The notes: generated by a model not told the origin, from the letters alone. 64,000 nucleotides of DNA from Leptonemataceae bacterium (GCA_965227295.1 OZ245742.1:5312001-5376000), one strand, 5' to 3'; positions 25,081-36,129 are shown, counted from the first letter of the stretch. Numbers and translations: made by a program.

Positions 25081-25740
25081 ATGTTGCGCCGTCGCAAATT
25101 CAAAGTCCAGCCCCGTTCCCTCCAGACCGCCGACGCCGTCGACCTCGTGCGAAGCGCGCGCTCCGGTTCGGCCGCGGCCTTTCAGTTGCTCGCCCATCGC
25201 GAACGACCGCGGGCCGTGCGTTTCGCCACGGCCATTCTGCGCGACCGGGACCTGGCCGAAGACGCCGTGCAGGAGGCCCTGCTCGACTGCCATCGCAAAC
25301 TACGCCATCTCCACGAGGCAGCAGCCTTCCCGGCCTGGTTCCGACGCATTGTCTTCAAACACTGCGACCGCATCCGCCGGCGGCGGGACTTCGAAACCGT
25401 GCCGTTTTCTCCCGAGCAGCTCGACGTCGCCGCTCCGCAACGCAGTCGCGAACGCAACCGGGACATTCGCCGTCGCTACGAGCGGGCATTGGGAAGCAAG
25501 GATCTCAGCGCCGAAGAACGCCGCATCGCCCGCCTGCGCTTCGAGGAGGAGCGCCCGTATCGGGAAATCGCGAGGCGGCTTAACATCTCCGAGGATACTG
25601 TTAAGAACCGCGTGCGCGTATTGCGACGCAAGCTCCAGTACCTCATGACGCACAAACAGCCGCAAATGTTGCTTGCGGTGCCGCAGCGCCCTGCAAACGC
25701 TCCGGCACCGGTATTCACGCCCATGTGCGCGGCTGCGTGA
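25081..25740 (+). CDS. ECF-type sigma-70 factor
   Basis: Region 2 DRDLAEDAVQEA..AFPAWFRRI; region 4 LSAEER..Y.EIARRLNISEDTVKNR; AGGAG RBS. Confidence 0.9.
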   Translation: MLRRRKFKVQPRSLQTADAVDLVRSARSGSAAAFQLLAHRERPRAVRFATAILRDRDLAEDAVQEALLDCHRKLRHLHEAAAFPAWFRRIVFKHCDRIRRRRDFETVPFSPEQLDVAAPQRSRERNRDIRRRYERALGSKDLSAEERRIARLRFEEERPYREIARRLNISEDTVKNRVRVLRRKLQYLMTHKQPQMLLAVPQRPANAPAPVFTPMCAAA

Positions 25741-25814
25741 GTCGCTGAATTCTCTCGAATAAAACGTACACGATTCACGGATCGGACGGGTCTTCTCTAC
25801 ACAAGGAGAACCCC

Positions 25815-26393
25815 ATGCCCGAATCCATCGACACCGCCGAAACCATTGCCGCCCTGCATCCCATTCAACAGCGCATCGACGAACACAACATAGGCGAGCG
25901 CCGCATCTTTCTCTGGGGCCAGGTGGACGACAACTCCGCCCGCCATGTCATTGAACGTTTGCTCTTGCTCGATTCCGAAAGCAACGAGGACATCACACTC
26001 CTCGTTAACAGCCCCGGAGGTGCGAACACGGCCGGCTTCGCCATCCTCGACACCATGCGATCCTTACGTTCGGACACGGCCACCGTATGCCTGGGCCTCG
26101 CCGCCAGCTTCGGCGCGCTCATTCTTACGTGCGGCACTCCGGGCAAACGCAGTGCCTATCCGCACAGCCGCATCATGATCCACCAGCCATGGATCCCCGG
26201 CGAAATCCGCGCACCGGCCATGGACCTGCGCATCCACGCCCAGGAAATTCAGCGCCAGCGCCAGACCATCAATGCCATCATCGCAGATTGCACCGGTCGT
26301 AGCATCGAAGAAATCGAAGAGGACACCGACCGGGATAGCTGGTTCACCGCGGAGGAAGCCGTAGACTACGGTCTCATTGACGAAGTGCTGTGA
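25815..26393 (+). CDS. clpP: ClpP-family protease subunit (paralog)
   Basis: RRIFLWGQV, NSPGG, CLGLAASFGA (Ser), MIHQP (His), DRDSWFTAEEA..YGLID (Asp); AAGGAG RBS. Confidence 0.93.
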   Translation: MPESIDTAETIAALHPIQQRIDEHNIGERRIFLWGQVDDNSARHVIERLLLLDSESNEDITLLVNSPGGANTAGFAILDTMRSLRSDTATVCLGLAASFGALILTCGTPGKRSAYPHSRIMIHQPWIPGEIRAPAMDLRIHAQEIQRQRQTINAIIADCTGRSIEEIEEDTDRDSWFTAEEAVDYGLIDEVL

Positions 26394-26446
26394 ATTAAGT
26401 CTAACATTGCGGCGGCCGACACTTATGACAGCCCGGAAAATCATAC

Positions 26447-27286
26447 GTGTCCCTCCGCCGCATATACGAGATCGTCCAGAAGGCCGAATCCGAAGACACT
26501 GCCAGCCGTATCTTCGACGGCCTGCTGATAGCGCTCATCTTTCTGAACGTGCTTGCCATCATGGCCGAGTCGTTCGACGAGATGAGCGTCTATGCAGTCT
26601 ACTTCCGCGTTTTCGAGATTGTTTCCGTTATCGTGTTTACCGTGGAATTCTGCGTCCGCCTGGCGACCGCCCGCTACTTCTACGAACACGAGGACGAACC
26701 GCCCGGTGCGGTCCGGTCGGCTCTACGCTGGTTTTTCTCCCCGCTGGCGCTCGTGGACCTCATCGCCATCCTGCCGTTTTACATTCCGCTCATCATCGGC
26801 TTCGATCTTCGCTTCGTCCGGATGATTCGCATCCTGCGATTGCTGCGCATCCTGAAGCTACAACGCTACTACACTTCGCTGGCGGTCATCGCCACCATCT
26901 TTCGCGAAAAGAAAGAAGACCTGGTCACCACGGTGTTTCTGAGCCTTATCCTGCTGGTCATCGCTTCGACGTTCATGTACTACATCGAAAACGACGCCCA
27001 GCCCGATGCCTTTCCAAACATCCTGGCAACGCTCTGGTGGGCCGTGGCCACGCTGACCACCGTGGGATACGGCGATGTCTATCCGGTGACAGCGGCAGGC
27101 AAATTCCTGGCGGGTTTCTTTGCACTGCTGGGGGTCGGTGTCATTGCCCTGCCGACGGGCATCCTGAGCGCGGCGTTCATCGACAAGCTGGCCGAACAAC
27201 GCCGCCTCGCAGCCCTGGCGCAAGCGGAAGAAGACGAGCAATTCCAGCGCTGTCCGCATTGCGGCAAAGTCATCGATGATGCCTGA
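26447..27286 (+). CDS. 6TM voltage-gated-type potassium channel
   Basis: S4-like RMIRILRLLRILKLQR; pore WWAVATLTTVGYGD; C-terminal CPHCG. Confidence 0.92.
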   Translation: MSLRRIYEIVQKAESEDTASRIFDGLLIALIFLNVLAIMAESFDEMSVYAVYFRVFEIVSVIVFTVEFCVRLATARYFYEHEDEPPGAVRSALRWFFSPLALVDLIAILPFYIPLIIGFDLRFVRMIRILRLLRILKLQRYYTSLAVIATIFREKKEDLVTTVFLSLILLVIASTFMYYIENDAQPDAFPNILATLWWAVATLTTVGYGDVYPVTAAGKFLAGFFALLGVGVIALPTGILSAAFIDKLAEQRRLAALAQAEEDEQFQRCPHCGKVIDDA

Positions 27287-27303
27287 GCACCAGGCGCGCG
27301 CCT

Positions 27304-28221
27304 TCAGCCGCGCCCGCGGGTTTTTGTGCGACCGGGGCGCGCGGTCTTTTCAATGAACTCCACAATGGATCCGGCAATGTCCTTGCCCGTGGCGTTCTCG
27401 ATACCCTCCAGGCCCGGCGAGGAGTTCACTTCCATAATCACCGGGCCGTGGCGCGAACGCAAGAGATCCACACCGGCCACGTTCAGGCCCATGGCCCGGG
27501 CGGCACGCACGGCGGTGGAGCGTTCTTCGGGGGTAATGCGAATCGCCTCCGAGGTCCCACCGCGGTGCAGATTCGAACGGAACTCGCCCTCTTTCGCCTT
27601 GCGCATCATCGAAGCAACGACCTTGTCCCCGATCACGAAACAGCGAATGTCCGAGCCGCCCGCTTCTTTAATGAACTCCTGCACAATGAAGTTGGCCTTC
27701 AGGCCGCGAAAGGCGTCGATGACCGACTCCGCCGCCTTGCGAGTTTCCGCCAGCACCACACCCACGCCCTGCGTCCCTTCCAGGAGCTTTACGACGAGAG
27801 GCGCCCCACCGACCATATCGATCAGCGCGTCCGTTTGTTGAGTCGACGCCGCAAATCCCGTCACCGGCAGGCCGATGCCCTTCTTCGAAAGCAACTGCAG
27901 GCTGCGCAGCTTATCCCGGGAACGCGTAATGGCGACGGATTCGTTCACCGAGTAAACGCCGGCCATCTCGAACTGTCGCACCACGGCGCAACCGTAGAAG
28001 GTAATCGAAGCGCCGATCCGCGGAACGATCGCATGCACGCCTTTGATGACCTGGTTTCGGTAATGCACCTCCGGATTATGCGCCGTGATGTTCATGTAAC
28101 AGCGCAGAGGGTCGAGAATCATTACCTCATGGCCACGGGCCTCGGAGGCTTCCACCAGACGTTTGGTGGAATAGAGCTCCGGACCGCGCGAGAGAATTGC
28201 GATCTTAAGTTTTTCTGTCAT
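27304..28221 (-). CDS. rimK: Ribosomal protein S6-L-glutamate ligase (ATP-grasp)
   Basis: [57 protein letters not shown]. Confidence 0.95.
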
Positions 28222-28225
28222 AGTA

Positions 28226-28750
28226 TTAAGCCTGGCCGCTTACGTGCTCGTTCCGGCCGATGATAAACGACGCCGACGGGTCGATCCAGAAACGACCGTG
28301 CATGGCCCGCCGCCCGATCAGCATGCGAAAGCCCATGAGGTCCCGGTCCGTCAGATTCAACTCCACCTGGAACTCGTGCAAGCCGAGCCGCAACTTCGTC
28401 GCGATGACCGGTCGTATTTCGCGCTCGCCGTTGGAACTGCGCACCGCGCGCCGGTCCAGCACCCGGGCCTCCGCCTGAATCGGCTCCCGCCGTGATCTGG
28501 AACCTACGGCGGCCTCAGCACTCGCGCCGCGATGATTCGGATCCGTCACGAAACGAACGAACTCAACCTCACCTTCTCCATCGACCCGGCGGTTAAAATA
28601 TTCCAGGTCCACGGCATGCAACGAACAGTTATGAGCGCCGGAATCGACTTTTGCTTTCAGAGAGAAGATGCCGAGATCGGGAAGGCTCACCCACTCGCGC
28701 CATCCGAGCCGCGGGAGCTCCGCAGAGATTGGTCCTGCCTTCCGGTGCAT
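28226..28750 (-). CDS. RimK-associated retropepsin-like protease (RimB/'ATP-dependent zinc protease' family)
   Basis: [20 protein letters not shown] (D-S/T-G), [18 protein letters not shown]; 4 bp upstream of rimK. Confidence 0.9.
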
Positions 28751-28866
28751 GTTCTAAAAATCAGGGCAACGTGCGCGAGCGTTGGGCTACAATCGTTTTT
28801 CGCCGCCGCGGTTAGAAAAATCGAAAAAAGCGTTCCCATCAAGGCAAAAACGGCCGAACCTCCCCC

Positions 28867-30195
28867 ATGGTCGTCGATTCGTCTCAGACGCGTTACCGCG
28901 ATGCCATCCGTGAAATCTCCGATGCCGTCGTCCGTGCACAAAAACCCATTCGCATCATTGAGTCGCTCAAGTGGGACACTCGCATCGAAGAGCGTTGCCT
29001 GGCCGGACACCTCCGTGAACTGCCCGCGGTAGACGCCGCCTACTATAGAGAAAAGCGTCCCCTGGAGTTCTCCCCGGCCGCGAAGCTGGAAGAATTCGAA
29101 GCCATCAAAGAAAGTATCTTACGTTATCCAGGCAAAGACGACGACCTCGGCGCGATCCTTTATCGCAACTGCGAGAACTACCAGGACGCGGTGCGCATGC
29201 TCGACTGCCGCGGAACTCCGGAGTTCTTCACATTCGCAAAGCGCCTTTACGGGAGCCCGAAGGATCACTTCGAGGGAGATTCGACAACCATCCGCGATCT
29301 GGGCGAAACCATGGCGGAGATTCTCGGCGGCATTCGTGAGACGGACCTCGGCACTGTCGCCGTAAAAGACGTCCCCGCGGAAACCGTGGTGCAAATACTG
29401 GATGATCGTTTCCAGGAATTTTTCCGGCCGCCGCCCGGCGCTCCGTCGGACCCGTTTCGCGTGCGCGTCATTCTGGACGACGGCATCCTGGCCGACGCGG
29501 CGGCAGGTTCGGATTACGTTAAGATCAAACGCGGCGTACTGTTCTCGATAAAGGAGATCGATCTCCTGGAAAAACACGAGGGCTGGGTGCACGTGGGCAC
29601 CACGTTGAACGGACGCGTGCAAAATTACGCGCGCTGGTTATCCAAGGGACCGCCGTGTGTTTCGGCGGTTCAGGAAGGCCTCGCCGTGCTCATGGAACTC
29701 ATCACCTTCACCATCCACCCGCACCGCGCCCGCAAACTCAACGACCGCATCGTCGCCACGGACCTGGCCGAGAGCGGCGCCGATTTCCTGGAAGTCTGCG
29801 AGTTTTACCGGTCCCGCGGTTACGAAGAGATCGATTGTTATCGCAACGCGAGTCGCATTTTTCGCGGCGGCGTAATTACCGGCGGCGCGCCCTTTCCGAA
29901 AGACATCGGCTACTGCAAAGGCATGGTCATGATCTACAACTTCATGCGCACGGCCATTCGCCTGGGCCGACCGGCGATCATCCCGTTTCTCTTCGCGGGC
30001 AAGCTGATCCTGGACGATGTGCCGGTGTTGTATCGCAAACACAAAGAAGGCGTGATCGACGCGCCGCTCTTTCTGCCGCCGCAGTTTCGCGACCTGAGCG
30101 GTCTCGCCATGTGGATGGCCTTTTCGAATTTTTTCAATCGCGTAAACCTGGACGGCGTTCGCGAACACTATCGACGCATCATCGAGGCGTGCTGA
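28867..30195 (+). CDS. DUF1704 / QEGLA-motif metallopeptidase (MATCAP-like carboxypeptidase family)
   Basis: HEGWVH (HExxxH) at ~29575, QEGLA at ~29671, RIFRGG, F.KD..Y..G, LFAGKL. Confidence 0.88.
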   Translation: MVVDSSQTRYRDAIREISDAVVRAQKPIRIIESLKWDTRIEERCLAGHLRELPAVDAAYYREKRPLEFSPAAKLEEFEAIKESILRYPGKDDDLGAILYRNCENYQDAVRMLDCRGTPEFFTFAKRLYGSPKDHFEGDSTTIRDLGETMAEILGGIRETDLGTVAVKDVPAETVVQILDDRFQEFFRPPPGAPSDPFRVRVILDDGILADAAAGSDYVKIKRGVLFSIKEIDLLEKHEGWVHVGTTLNGRVQNYARWLSKGPPCVSAVQEGLAVLMELITFTIHPHRARKLNDRIVATDLAESGADFLEVCEFYRSRGYEEIDCYRNASRIFRGGVITGGAPFPKDIGYCKGMVMIYNFMRTAIRLGRPAIIPFLFAGKLILDDVPVLYRKHKEGVIDAPLFLPPQFRDLSGLAMWMAFSNFFNRVNLDGVREHYRRIIEAC

Positions 30196-30253
30196 AATAG
30201 AGCGCGCCGATCAGCGCGTCTTCGGCCTCGCTGTCACACGTTTGCGGCCTGTT

Positions 30254-30820
30254 TTATTGGCCACCTATCGTAGAGGACACGACGGGCAGGTCCTTCACGT
30301 TGCTGTCCTTGAAACAATTACCGCCGGTCACGACCGATCGCAACTCTTCGTTGGTCAAAGACTGATCGATCTTTACCTCGAACAGGAACATACCGCTCTT
30401 GCTGACGCTTTTGTTTCGAAAGTGCGCCGTCCCCACGTTCATGAGTCGTCCGGGTTCCGCCGTAACGGTGATCTTCGACGGGAATTCGAATTTGCCGGCG
30501 TCGTTATTGTACTTAAACTTCTGGAGCTCCACCGGTCCCGCCGGAACGTTCAAAAAATAGACCCACGTAACGGGTTTATCTCCCGGTCGGCCGACACAAC
30601 GAAATGCCGGAGAGAACTCTCCGACGGACGTCTCGACAAAGAACCAGGGTTCCCGCAGAGAACGAGTGGAACCGTCGGAGTTCAGTACTTCGTGACGGAA
30701 GCCCAGTGCCAGGACGGACTCTTCCGCCGAAACCGAATCGTTCTGTCCCAGGCCGAGCGAAAAGCAACCGGAAAGCCCCAGGCAGAGAACAACTACTAAA
30801 AAAACATTACGAACAAACAT
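30254..30820 (-). CDS. Hypothetical lipoprotein
   Basis: Signal with LGLSGC lipobox; 188-aa ORF continuing the minus-strand run. Confidence 0.65.
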   Translation of the reverse strand: MFVRNVFLVVVLCLGLSGCFSLGLGQNDSVSAEESVLALGFRHEVLNSDGSTRSLREPWFFVETSVGEFSPAFRCVGRPGDKPVTWVYFLNVPAGPVELQKFKYNNDAGKFEFPSKITVTAEPGRLMNVGTAHFRNKSVSKSGMFLFEVKIDQSLTNEELRSVVTGGNCFKDSNVKDLPVVSSTIGGQ

Positions 30821-30851: not shown

Positions 30852-32063
30852 TCAACCGCATATTTGCACGACGTCCCATAATGCCCCGAGCAAGGCGTCC
30901 GGCTTCGTTACGAAGAACGCGTCCGGCGTCGCTCCACGCACGCGCGCCCGCAACCCCTCATCTTCCGTAACAAACACTGCCGTAACGTTAGTGGATCCCG
31001 CGCGTTCCACCGCCGCCGCAACCAACGGCACATCCGAGCCGGTGTCGCCGCAGACCAGCACCCGCCCGCCGGCGTTCAACTTCACACGAAGCTCATCCAG
31101 CACAAAGCGCAGTCCGTCGCCCTTATCGAACTCGCGGGCGGGCGAGGCCTCGCCGCCCCCGGAAGCGTCACGCGGCAGCGTGAGATGCACTTCGATGTCC
31201 AGGCCCGTATCCTCGATGCGCAAGGTCCCCGGATCCACGGCGTCCACCAGTTCGCGGACCAGTTCCAGGAATGCCTCCGACTCGTCCGCGTCCACGTTGC
31301 GTGCACTGTCCTGGCGCGCCACCGTGAGCTGACCGACCTTTTCCTGAAAACCGGAACCGATCAGCGCAAACTTCCGGTAAGCTTCTGCTTGTAGGATGTT
31401 TGCAATACGCGCGGCCAGTTCGTCCAGGGACCGCTGTTGTTGCGGCGCCACGGGGGTGGAGCCGCGACCCGAGGGAGCGACGTATTCCCGGCCCTTCGAA
31501 CCGGCGAAGACGATGGCATGATCGTCCGGCAGCGTCGACAGATCCCTCAGCCCCGCCGACGCCCCGGTTCCACCCAGGGGCGCCGATGTGAGAATCAAGG
31601 CGAGGCCCGGCAGCGCACGCGCGAAACGATCCACGACGGCGGAGTTGTATGCGCTCTGGATCGACGACAGATACCGGCCGCAGTAATTGTTGATGGTACC
31701 GTCGCGATCCGTAATCCAGTGTGCGATCCTCCCGCCGCGCAAGCGTTCCGCGAGACGGCGTGTCCCGTCCCGGTCCTCCGCGCTCAGATCGAGGACATCC
31801 GGGAGCTCCACGCGGTCGAACCAGGCCAGGTCTTTGCTTAACTCCTGAATTTCGTAACTTACGTCAAAGAGATATTTGTGACCGTCCGGGGCCTCCAGCC
31901 GCGCCTGCCAGGGCGGGCCCTTACCGGCGGAGCCCCCGATAGCGGGCAGGAGTTTACGTAGTTCCGCGGCCGTGTCCGCGGCGCTCCGCCGCGCGTTCGC
32001 GAAGTCCCGGCGCAAATCCCGGGAGCGCATCATGCTCGCATCGAAGTCCGCCAGGCCGAACAT
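30852..32063 (-). CDS. HAD-family trehalose-6-phosphate phosphatase-like protein (gob-1/nematode-type T6PP-like)
   Basis: ITDRDGT..NYC..Y..SIQ (motif I), LTSAP, GSKGRE, DKGDG, CGDTGSD (motif IV). Confidence 0.75.
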   Translation of the reverse strand: MFGLADFDASMMRSRDLRRDFANARRSAADTAAELRKLLPAIGGSAGKGPPWQARLEAPDGHKYLFDVSYEIQELSKDLAWFDRVELPDVLDLSAEDRDGTRRLAERLRGGRIAHWITDRDGTINNYCGRYLSSIQSAYNSAVVDRFARALPGLALILTSAPLGGTGASAGLRDLSTLPDDHAIVFAGSKGREYVAPSGRGSTPVAPQQQRSLDELAARIANILQAEAYRKFALIGSGFQEKVGQLTVARQDSARNVDADESEAFLELVRELVDAVDPGTLRIEDTGLDIEVHLTLPRDASGGGEASPAREFDKGDGLRFVLDELRVKLNAGGRVLVCGDTGSDVPLVAAAVERAGSTNVTAVFVTEDEGLRARVRGATPDAFFVTKPDALLGALWDVVQICG

Positions 32064-34108: not shown

Positions 34109-35143
34109 TCAGTGTTCTCGCACCACGCGCTCCATCCACTCCCGCGCCTGGGTTTCGTTGGCCAGCATGCGCACGTAAGGTCGACGCATGGCGGCGCCGA
34201 AAACCACGCGGATATCGTCCGTGTGCGGATGAGGATGCAGTGGATCCACGAAGAATATGACCACGGAGCAGCGGTGATAGAGGATCTCGGTGGCGATCTC
34301 GATATCGCCGCCCTTCGGCCCGGAGTTGTACGGCTGCACCCGCTCCTTTAACATGGTCGTGGCGCCGAGGATTTCCCGGCCCGTGGTACCCGTGGTGAGA
34401 ATACGACCGAAGCGGGCCAGTTCAAACTCAAAGTCGACACAGAACTCCACCATGCGCGGCTTCATGCTGTCATGGGCGATCAACGCCACGGTGAGCGCGC
34501 CGAAATCGTCGTAGTCGACTTTTTGATACTCGGCCGGGAACACAAAGACGTTACCCGCGTGTTCGAGATGTCGGTCGGCCCGCACCTCGCGATTGTCGTT
34601 GAAACGAAAGAGCGGCGGCACCGGCTGCAACCGGCGACGCACATCGCGGTCGGCCTCCCGGGCGAACCACTCTTCCACCGAACCGTAGTTCATGAGCCGC
34701 TTCGCCCGCCACACATCGGACAGGCGCATCAACGCGAGCAAGTCCGGATTCAACCAGTGATTGGTCATGGGATTCAAAAAGGTCCAGAGGATGGAGCAAC
34801 GCTTGCGCACCACGAAGTACGAGAGCAGGATGACGCCGCCGTCCCGGTTGCGCGGCAACACCGTGGAACGCTCGATCAGGAAGTCGCGCACTTCATTGTC
34901 GAGGCGCAGGTGTTCGCCGGCCTCTTCCAGATCGCCGTATTCGCCGTACTCTTTGCCGAGGACGCAACGATCAAAGGTCCCGCGCGTAAACAGAAAATGA
35001 AAGCGACCTAAGAGATCGCGATCCCGGCGATACATCTCGGAAAAGATCGTGACCAGTTCGAGGTTTTTGCGCAGGGAATCGTGGCTCGCCAGCACTCCGA
35101 TGTACGTGCGATCATCTTTGCTATTTGAATGAGTCGAACTCAC
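34109..35143 (-). CDS. Methylglyoxal synthase-like protein with an additional degenerate N-terminal MGS domain
   Basis: C-terminal ALIAHD..K, TTGTTG, SGPKGGD, FFVDPLHPHPHTDD; GTG at 35143 overlaps antiporter stop (GTGA). Confidence 0.78.
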   Translation of the reverse strand: MSSTHSNSKDDRTYIGVLASHDSLRKNLELVTIFSEMYRRDRDLLGRFHFLFTRGTFDRCVLGKEYGEYGDLEEAGEHLRLDNEVRDFLIERSTVLPRNRDGGVILLSYFVVRKRCSILWTFLNPMTNHWLNPDLLALMRLSDVWRAKRLMNYGSVEEWFAREADRDVRRRLQPVPPLFRFNDNREVRADRHLEHAGNVFVFPAEYQKVDYDDFGALTVALIAHDSMKPRMVEFCVDFEFELARFGRILTTGTTGREILGATTMLKERVQPYNSGPKGGDIEIATEILYHRCSVVIFFVDPLHPHPHTDDIRVVFGAAMRRPYVRMLANETQAREWMERVVREH

Positions 35144-36129
35144 GGGCCTCCGGCGGCGACAGAAATGAGCCAGGCAACATAGAGCACGTATCCGCCGAGA
35201 AACAACGCGCCCTCCAGGCGGCTCACCCGACTGCCGGTGAAGAAAACCGGCACGCACAGCACGGCGGCCCCCAGGGCCACGGGAAAGTCCAGATGAATCG
35301 CCTGATCGGCCACCGGCACCGGGACAATCATCGCGGCACCGCCCAGAACGAACAAGAGATTAAAGAGATTGCTGCCGATCACATTGCCTACGGCGATGTC
35401 ACGCTCCCCCCGCGCCGCGGCCACCAACGACGCGGCCAGCTCAGGGAGCGACGTTCCCACCGCGACGATGGTGAGGCCGATCATAAGCTCACTGACTCCA
35501 AAGCCGCGGGCGAACCGCACCGCCCCGTCCACGAGCAGGTCCGCCCCAAAGACCAGGACACCGAGACCGGCGACAACAAACAGAATCTGCACGATGATGC
35601 CAACGATACTCGCGGGCTTCGCGTCACCGTCTGCGGGACCGTAGGCCTCCGCGAATTCCGCCTGTATCGCCGCCGACTCACGCCGGCTCTGCCGCACGGC
35701 GAACACCGTATACGCGACGGCGCCGCAAACAAAGATCAATCCTTCCACACGACCGATACTGCCCTGCCACGCGAAGAGGTACGCAAGGCCCGTAACGAAA
35801 ATCAACAGCGGCACCTCGATGCGCAGCAAACGCATTTGTACCGCGAGCGGAGTGACGCACGCCGACACCCCCAGAATCAACAACACGTTGGCAATATTAC
35901 TGCCGAGTACGTTGCCCACCGCGATATCCGCCTGACCGCCGAGGGCCGACTGCAGACTCACGGCCAGCTCCGGCGCACTCGTTCCGAAAGCCACGACGGT
36001 GAGACCGACGACGAGCGGTGATACCCCGGCCCCGACGGCGAGGGCCGACGCTCCCCGCACCAGAAGTTCCGCGCCGACCACAAGCAACACCAGGCCGGCG
36101 ACAATGCTGAACAATATCCAGAAGTCCAT
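35140..36129 (-). CDS. Ca2+/Na+ (cation:Ca2+) antiporter, YrbG family
   Basis: Alpha repeats GTSAPEL..GNVLGSNIAN and GTSLPEL..GNVIGSNLFN. Confidence 0.93.
   Translation of the reverse strand: MDFWILFSIVAGLVLLVVGAELLVRGASALAVGAGVSPLVVGLTVVAFGTSAPELAVSLQSALGGQADIAVGNVLGSNIANVLLILGVSACVTPLAVQMRLLRIEVPLLIFVTGLAYLFAWQGSIGRVEGLIFVCGAVAYTVFAVRQSRRESAAIQAEFAEAYGPADGDAKPASIVGIIVQILFVVAGLGVLVFGADLLVDGAVRFARGFGVSELMIGLTIVAVGTSLPELAASLVAAARGERDIAVGNVIGSNLFNLLFVLGGAAMIVPVPVADQAIHLDFPVALGAAVLCVPVFFTGSRVSRLEGALFLGGYVLYVAWLISVAAGGP

Follow-up and report, generated by a model that had tools for sequence, protein, structure and literature searches.

What joins a retropepsin-like peptidase, a RimK-type glutamate ligase and a putative DUF1704 metallopeptidase encoded side by side in a Leptonemataceae bacterium, and on what substrate might they act? 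A first-pass annotation of the locus proposed that a shared divergent promoter couples a glutamylation writer to two peptidase erasers acting on ribosomal protein S6 or on poly-alpha-glutamate, as a prokaryotic analogue of the tubulin code. The genes lie in a 64,000-nucleotide stretch of the genome (GCA_965227295.1, OZ245742.1:5312001-5376000; hereafter the window), and positions are counted from its first letter.

The rimB-like, rimK and DUF1704 genes

27304..28221, minus strand: rimK, predicted alpha-L-glutamate ligase (ATP-grasp), 305 aa; NF007764, 461.6 bits; PF08443 and PF18030
28226..28750, minus strand: rimB-like gene for a retropepsin-type aspartic peptidase, 174 aa; PF05618, 92 bits; 4 bp upstream of rimK
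28634..28645, minus strand: DSGA catalytic motif of the RimB-like protein, Asp36; read from the sequence
28751..28866, no strand: divergent intergenic region of 116 bp, presumed to hold the promoter(s); no sigma-70-like sites
28867..30195, plus strand: predicted DUF1704/MATCAP-family zinc metallopeptidase, stand-alone short form, 442 aa; PF08014, 371.6 bits
29575..29592, plus strand: HEGWVH (HExxxH), residues 237-242, with predicted zinc ligands H237 and H242 and catalytic E238; from alignment to the MATCAP HExxxH
29671..29685, plus strand: QEGLA, with QEG from residue 269 and predicted third zinc ligand E270; from alignment to the MATCAP EEG motif

The genes, strands and family names of the first-pass annotation, the HEGWVH and QEGLA motifs, and the gaps of 4 bp (rimB-like to rimK) and 116 bp (rimB-like to the divergent DUF1704 gene) are all confirmed in the sequence and by profile scores. 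Each of the three genes is present in one copy in the 5.94-Mb genome.

RimK is predicted to be an ATP-dependent alpha-L-glutamate ligase. It scores above the curated NF007764 cut-off (461.6 versus 331 bits), contains both the PreATP-grasp and the ATP-grasp domain, and scores far lower on the MptN (163) and CofF (73) models than on NF007764 (461). Residues K145, E182, I184, F214, S216 and N217, paired by a constant offset of 4 and without structural alignment, correspond to the ADP-binding side chains K141, E178, I180, F210, S212 and N213 given in the available text of PMC10092738. The peptidase encoded upstream is classed as RimB-like by its D[ST]G motif, its PF05618 match and its position next to rimK; RimB is the top of four NCBIfam models (RloA models, 52-60 bits), at a score under the NF052261 cut-off for RimB (100.5 versus 200 bits). 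The DUF1704 protein far exceeds the PF08014 gathering cut-off (371.6 versus 27 bits) and falls under that of TIGR02421 (301 versus 338.65 bits).

A scan of 26300-30400 found no sigma-70-like sites (shuffles, 1.4 +/- 1.2), which neither shows nor excludes a promoter and leaves the shared divergent promoter of the first-pass annotation a supposition; the same scan gave seven terminator-like matches (shuffles, 4.5 +/- 2.2). With GC3 values of 0.72-0.74, the three genes are similar to flanking genes, and the nearest DUF1704 and rimK relatives belong to the same family, so recent foreign origin of the trio is not indicated. For the DUF1704 protein, the nearest relative carries the label Spirochaetota.

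The locus resembles the Pseudomonas RimK-RimB(-RimA) system (PMC11957791, PMC10092738) in having rimB directly upstream of rimK, a canonical RimK and a D[ST]GA retropepsin. It differs in lacking an adjacent rimA, in an S6 without terminal glutamate, and in the adjoining MATCAP-type gene; the available text of the two papers describes no exopeptidase for the Pseudomonas system. RloABC of Pseudomonas aeruginosa also combines a retropepsin with an ATP-grasp ligase, and its reported activity is cleavage of poly-Glu, with no genome-encoded substrate found (PMC12239564, available text). RloA is secreted, however, the operon includes the membrane protein RloB, and that text mentions no MATCAP-type gene.

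A MATCAP-like fold and metal site

The AlphaFold model of the DUF1704 protein (45 sequences) has a mean pLDDT of 92.8, and its best structural match is human MATCAP (Foldseek E 1.3e-5), onto which it superposes with Z 22.3 and rmsd 3.3 over 296 aligned residues (7z6s). The next matches are DUF885 proteins (Z 15-18, best 18.1) and M32 carboxypeptidases (Z 9-10). Sequence identity to human MATCAP is 16%; neither phmmer nor a narrow profile reaches MATCAP by sequence, whereas a broad profile of 70 sequences does so (7z5g, E 1.2e-9), with the HExxxH and EG motifs aligned. As modelled, the protein has the MATCAP gluzincin fold and the metal-site motifs, and the first-pass annotation was right on this point.

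In 70 of 70 aligned relatives H237, E238, H242, E270, R287, R294 and R330 are unchanged, and R333 (65/70), K345 (63/70) and Y349 (69/70) are nearly so. All ten residues are kept in the 42 proteins (42/42) of an alignment that covers every DUF1704 clade sampled. The conserved basic residues would suit the holding of an acidic C-terminus.

Human MATCAP/TMCP1 and TMCP2 (KIAA0895L and KIAA0895; 7Z5G, 7Z6S) share with the bacterial protein the Pfam family, the HExxxH and EG motifs and the fold. Human and Tetrahymena TMCPs trim polyglutamate from the C-terminus, shortening chains built by ATP-grasp TTLL ligases (PMC10499314). The differences are the low identity (16%), the lack of tubulin here, and a deglutamylase activity known, in the available text of that source, from eukaryotic members only. 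In the open full-text literature searched, which does not include the original MATCAP publication or earlier surveys of ATP-grasp neighbourhoods, no substrate or function is described for bacterial DUF1704 proteins. Searching genome contigs with the single protein yielded no confirmed DUF1704 relatives, and an alignment query recovered them. Among about 8000 candidates per search we found no longer, fused forms, which is weak evidence.

The gene arrangement is rare

The enrichment of DUF1704 beside rimK that follows from the first-pass annotation is not seen. Among genome loci of the closest relatives, 0 of 82 have a rimK or rimB gene near DUF1704 (80 plus 2 added, with one duplicate; at least 1.5 kb of upstream sequence in 66 of the 80), and among metagenome loci 0 of 80 do (at least 1.5 kb upstream in 49), giving 0 of 162 related loci overall. 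In genomes holding both genes, they are close together in one of the 36 from Bdellovibrionota and in none of the 19 from Planctomycetota. A ligase beside DUF1704 is absent at 12 of 12 Planctomycetota loci. An RLAN-type RimK-like ligase adjoins DUF1704 at 4 of the 80 metagenome loci, and in both of those scanned a GNAT-C39 fusion separates the two genes. In the closest relative (G007), rimK and DUF1704 are on separate contigs, and a search for flank synteny by way of the trehalose-phosphatase gene was negative in four of four relatives. The cluster of rimB-rimK and DUF1704 is a rare arrangement and not a conserved operon.

One explanation is that the genes are chance neighbours, the DUF1704 protein being a general peptide-turnover carboxypeptidase that was rearranged next to rimB-rimK, with any co-occurrence arising from shared lineage or lifestyle. 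The absence of the layout at all 162 related loci fits this explanation, as do the lineage-specific housekeeping genes that neighbour DUF1704 in close relatives, the divergent orientation, a same-genus genome (G002) that has rimK and astE without DUF1704, and the wider fold held in common with M32-type general carboxypeptidases (Z about 10). We nevertheless consider it unlikely, given an independent operon described here and the genome-level patterns of the next section.

The single Bdellovibrionota case (G168) was picked out from coordinates among the 36 genomes holding both genes. There rimB, rimK and DUF1704 follow one another in the same direction as an operon, and the rimK stop is followed by a gap of 6 bp. 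Its DUF1704 protein is 24% identical to that of the window and belongs to a different clade, so the adjacency arose separately there. Besides the genome studied here, this is the one case in about 100 genomes with both genes, and it weakly suggests adjacency beyond chance. In the window, the adjacency may reflect co-regulation.

Co-occurrence with RimK and other ATP-grasp ligases

The comparative evidence for a tie of this DUF1704 clade to RimK is good. Counting this genome and none twice, all 72 of 72 genomes of the close clade, from at least five phyla, have a RimK-family gene, against rimK baselines of 4-50% in the groups sampled, a pattern that speaks against chance neighbours. In the 50 genomes drawn from 80 close-relative loci (chosen before the outcome, and mostly longer contigs), all 50 have a RimK-family gene at E <= 1.4e-51, 16 of them above the RimK equivalog cut-off. 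Among the 41 nearest genomes, seven have rimK and three have DUF1704, and those three are all among the seven.

The same direction is seen within phyla. In Bdellovibrionota (n=151), rimK is present in 24 of 24 close-clade genomes versus 51 of 127 others, and in Planctomycetota (n=151) in 19 of 19 genomes with DUF1704, from about 8 lineages, versus 37 of 132 without it. The naive P for Planctomycetota, with the centre genome left out, is 1.8e-9 and ignores kinship. A lepA tree of 78 of these genomes (all 19 with DUF1704 and 59 of the 132 lacking it; no lepA match was obtained in 2 others) implies 8 changes for DUF1704 and 13 for rimK. Its six independent pairs comprise 4.5 that agree, 0 that disagree and 1.5 ties, and the tree-corrected sign test (median p 0.125, range 0.03-0.25) is not significant alone but consistent in direction; the median value is a further point in favour of chance neighbours. 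Alphaproteobacteria (n=221) have rimK in 36 genomes overall and in both of the two with short-form DUF1704. Among Spirochaetota (n=191), a rimK-like gene is found in 8, and DUF1704 in this genome and in two long-form genomes without rimK. Most rimK genomes lack DUF1704, so DUF1704 is at most accessory to rimK.

Other DUF1704 clades behave differently. In Bdellovibrionota, a second short clade shows no link to rimK (present in 12 of 33 genomes, versus 39 of 94 without DUF1704; P 0.76), and rimK is absent from the genomes with long-form DUF1704 (0 of 4 Alphaproteobacteria, 0 of 2 Spirochaetota). The DUF1704 family as a whole therefore needs no RimK. Long forms have about 620-680 aa, are about 20% identical to the window's protein, and adjoin or are fused to an FGase-like (N-formylglutamate-amidohydrolase-like) enzyme, with a GshB-like (PRK12458) ligase beside them. 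The ligase is adjacent at 7 of 9 intact long-form loci (L187, L189, L190, L260-L262 and L311); of the other two, L188 has no adjacent ligase and L310 runs off its contig. One frameshifted long-form copy has no ligase beside it. This operon, found in rhizobia and elsewhere, resembles the window in joining DUF1704 to an ATP-grasp ligase and a second hydrolase, but it is tightly conserved and its ligase is GshB-like, while members of the window's clade occur as stand-alone genes.

Ten of the 21 second-clade genomes that lack rimK were examined, and each carries a PRK12458-like ligase with 37-41% identity to the ligase operonic with long DUF1704; among controls with neither gene, 1 of 10 has a comparable 350-aa match (54 bits). 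RimK-less DUF1704 clades may thus be accompanied by a GshB-like ligase. The pattern may be a lineage effect, because the ligase adjoins ddl and pepP and may be an ordinary glutathione synthetase.

Genome co-occurrence, the G168 operon and the ligase operons of other clades together support the view that DUF1704 and ATP-grasp ligases are functionally linked. The separately formed rimB-rimK-DUF1704 operon and the operonic ligases elsewhere (7 of 9 intact long-form loci; 4 of 80 metagenome loci, with an RLAN ligase) also speak against a chance arrangement. Of the writer/eraser coupling first proposed, this link stands and the conserved neighbourhood does not. A stand-alone DUF1704 clade nested within rimK genomes is new, as is the exclusion of S6 described below, and the co-occurrence points to one partner (RimK) and one substrate class (poly-alpha-glutamate) for bacterial DUF1704 proteins.

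Protein tails as candidate substrates

The first-pass annotation left the substrate as either S6 or poly-alpha-glutamate; the former fares badly and the latter is the surviving alternative. S6 of this genome ends in -HMIHVTN followed by TAA, with no terminal glutamate, and a terminal glutamate is present in only 2 of 18 genomes with rimK and DUF1704 (G048 and G221); other ends include -RRA (G007), -RVA (G019) and -RKQ (G168). In E. coli, modification of S6 by RimK requires an S6 ending in glutamate. Such a need is also implied in the available text of PMC11957791, according to which many RpsF proteins have no terminal glutamate and RimK is found in many bacteria whose S6 cannot accept a glutamate tail. 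We rejected S6 as a general substrate on these ends, and it is an unlikely substrate of RimK and DUF1704 here.

L9 of this genome ends in -ATEE. Acidic L9 tails also occur in family relatives without rimK (G001, G013), and in most of the other phyla sampled L9 has no such tail; L9 was likewise set aside as a general substrate. A crude genome-wide ORF scan, which missed L9, counted an EE end in 22 of 4005 proteins, close to the expectation from letter frequencies, with no evident candidate.

These observations bear on a protein-tail code, in which RimK would write, and RimB and DUF1704 erase, a glutamate tail on S6 or on another protein ending in Glu-Glu. The Pseudomonas S6 system is established (PMC11957791), protein tails are the substrates of MATCAP (PMC10499314), and L9 here offers a Glu-Glu end. 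The -VTN end of S6, the scarcity of glutamate ends (2/18), the acidic L9 tails in genomes without rimK and the unremarkable EE count make this code rather unlikely. Describing the locus as an analogue of the tubulin code overstates the case, as no protein substrate was identified.

Glutamate polymers and small molecules

In the available text of PMC11957791, cleavage by RimB is confined to runs of at least 5-6 glutamates, and RimB stimulates RimK to form poly-alpha-Glu, draining the glutamate pool. Short oligomers would then remain, for which an exopeptidase would be needed. Taken together, the RimB/RimK poly-Glu data, the chain shortening by TMCPs and the S6 ends favour a glutamate polymer as the substrate.

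The distribution of an AstE/AspA-like peptidase gene (PF24827) 3' of rimK hints that AstE-like and DUF1704 exopeptidases may be interchangeable. It is present in 14 of 24 genomes without DUF1704 versus 4 of 25 in which DUF1704 is present (4 of 38 if the bit cut is dropped), in a comparison of related, non-independent genomes that used a cut of RimK >=380 bits chosen after seeing the table. The replacement argument is weakened because both this genome, where the astE-like gene is elsewhere, and G007, where it is beside rimK, hold astE-like and DUF1704 genes.

A cycle on a small molecule can also be envisaged, in which RimK would attach glutamate to a metabolite or cofactor and DUF1704 would take it off again. 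Archaeal MptN and CofF glutamylate such compounds, and animal RIMKLA/B add glutamate to N-acetylaspartate and citrate. The long-form DUF1704 proteins, with their N-formylglutamate-amidohydrolase-like enzyme and GshB-like ligase, suggest small acyl-glutamate chemistry. RimK homologues in coenzyme synthesis and the many S6 proteins without a glutamate end (PMC11957791, available text) are in keeping with such a cycle. The RimB-like partner, however, implies long chains if it needs runs of 5-6 glutamates (PMC11957791), and this RimK scores as the canonical equivalog at 461 bits, with MptN (163) and CofF (73) far behind, which renders a small-molecule cycle quite improbable.

A proposed glutamate-chain cycle

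We hypothesize, with about even confidence, that the DUF1704 protein is a carboxypeptidase that recycles poly-alpha-glutamate made by RimK. RimK is predicted to build alpha-linked glutamate chains, the RimB-like protease likely cleaves long chains into pieces, and the DUF1704 protein is likely a zinc carboxypeptidase that takes glutamates singly off alpha-linked chains. The chain is probably free poly-alpha-glutamate or carried by some other acceptor, because S6 here has no terminal glutamate. Together, the three proteins would store and release glutamate. Their activities in this organism and their substrate are proposed from sequence comparison.

A broader version is doubtful at present: that bacterial DUF1704 proteins are general erasers of chains made by RimK- or GshB-type ligases, the counterpart of MATCAP/TMCP, within an unrecognised glutamate-storage cycle, with free poly-alpha-glutamate as the store, that buffers the glutamate pool of the cell on salt downshift, and that RimK in many phyla serves mainly polymer metabolism rather than modification of the ribosome. 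If the recycling hypothesis is true, the RimK/RimB system gains its missing exopeptidase, and the pairing of an ATP-grasp glutamylase with a MATCAP-type deglutamylase exists in bacteria too.

Salt and osmotic context

A role for the glutamate-chain cycle in buffering the cytoplasmic glutamate pool upon a change of salt or osmolarity is speculative and similarly doubtful. In Photobacterium damselae at 1% versus 3% NaCl, rimK (chromosome I) is up 52-fold, an overlapping pair on chromosome II is up 38-fold (gshB-like) and 27.5-fold (long QEGLA), and two AstE-like genes are down about 2-fold (PMC10308900). The authors, in the available text, draw no connection between the induction of rimK and that of gshB-like/QEGLA, and these values are a lead only, from a single data set and a long-form DUF1704 of a different clade. 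Rlo peptidases, which cleave poly-Glu, are required under hypo-osmotic stress (PMC12239564).

Around rimK, the window also encodes a potassium channel, trehalose-phosphate phosphatase, CorA and MscS. In the same-genus genome G002, rimK, accompanied by astE and without DUF1704, lies amid three MscS genes, two MgtE-type genes, one CNNM gene and a RimK-TrkA_C fusion; one of these MscS proteins is 72% identical to the MscS of the window.

Operon with rimB, rimK and DUF1704 genes

In the Bdellovibrionota genome G168, the three genes of interest form a single operon:

L213, 4311-6984: rimB-rimK-DUF1704 operon, all genes co-directional

Ribosomal protein S6 of this genome ends in -RKQ. For testing the idea that the DUF1704 protein, a predicted carboxypeptidase, trims glutamate chains made by RimK, the G168 operon is preferable to the window as a model locus. 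In the source genome of the window, ribosomal protein L9 carries a long acidic extension (L001, 2322-2957) that ends in -EGESEGEATEE, and L9 tails of a similar kind occur family-wide, irrespective of rimK.

Other neighbours and fusions of DUF1704

The second short DUF1704 clade of Bdellovibrionota has as recurrent neighbours a Glu/Leu/Phe/Val dehydrogenase, methylmalonyl-CoA mutase and an rRNA methyltransferase-like gene (loci L217, L219, L221-L223, L225, L226 and L230), which hint at a link to amino-acid recycling. A glutathione S-transferase N-terminal domain is fused to DUF1704 in the 650-aa protein P0245, and genes named GST-like from the sequence start only adjoin DUF1704 in seven Bacteriovorax-type loci.

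Ion-transport genes around rimK

In the same-genus genome G002, MscS, MgtE-type and CNNM genes surround rimK and astE-like genes (L285, 100-10817), and the same stretch includes a RimK-TrkA_C fusion. Because rimK sits in these surroundings, ion or osmotic control of RimK is suggested. In the window, a potassium channel gene converges on rimK:

Window 25081-26393: in this order, ECF sigma factor gene, stand-alone clpP paralogue and the potassium channel gene

The source genome has another ligase-hydrolase cluster (contig C1, about 1876100-1880400), which lies 3-5 kb from mscS and an astE-like gene:

L305, 4100-8356: consecutive genes for FGase-like, GCS2 glutamate-cysteine-ligase-like, RLAN RimK-like ATP-grasp and C39-like peptidase proteins

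Other genes of the window

Window 30852-32063: trehalose-6-phosphate phosphatase (PF21141)
Window 34109-35257: 382-aa protein, methylglyoxal-synthase-like domain at the C-terminal end, no domain assigned to the N-terminal part

The phosphatase had no match in any of the four relatives searched, which included both same-genus genomes.
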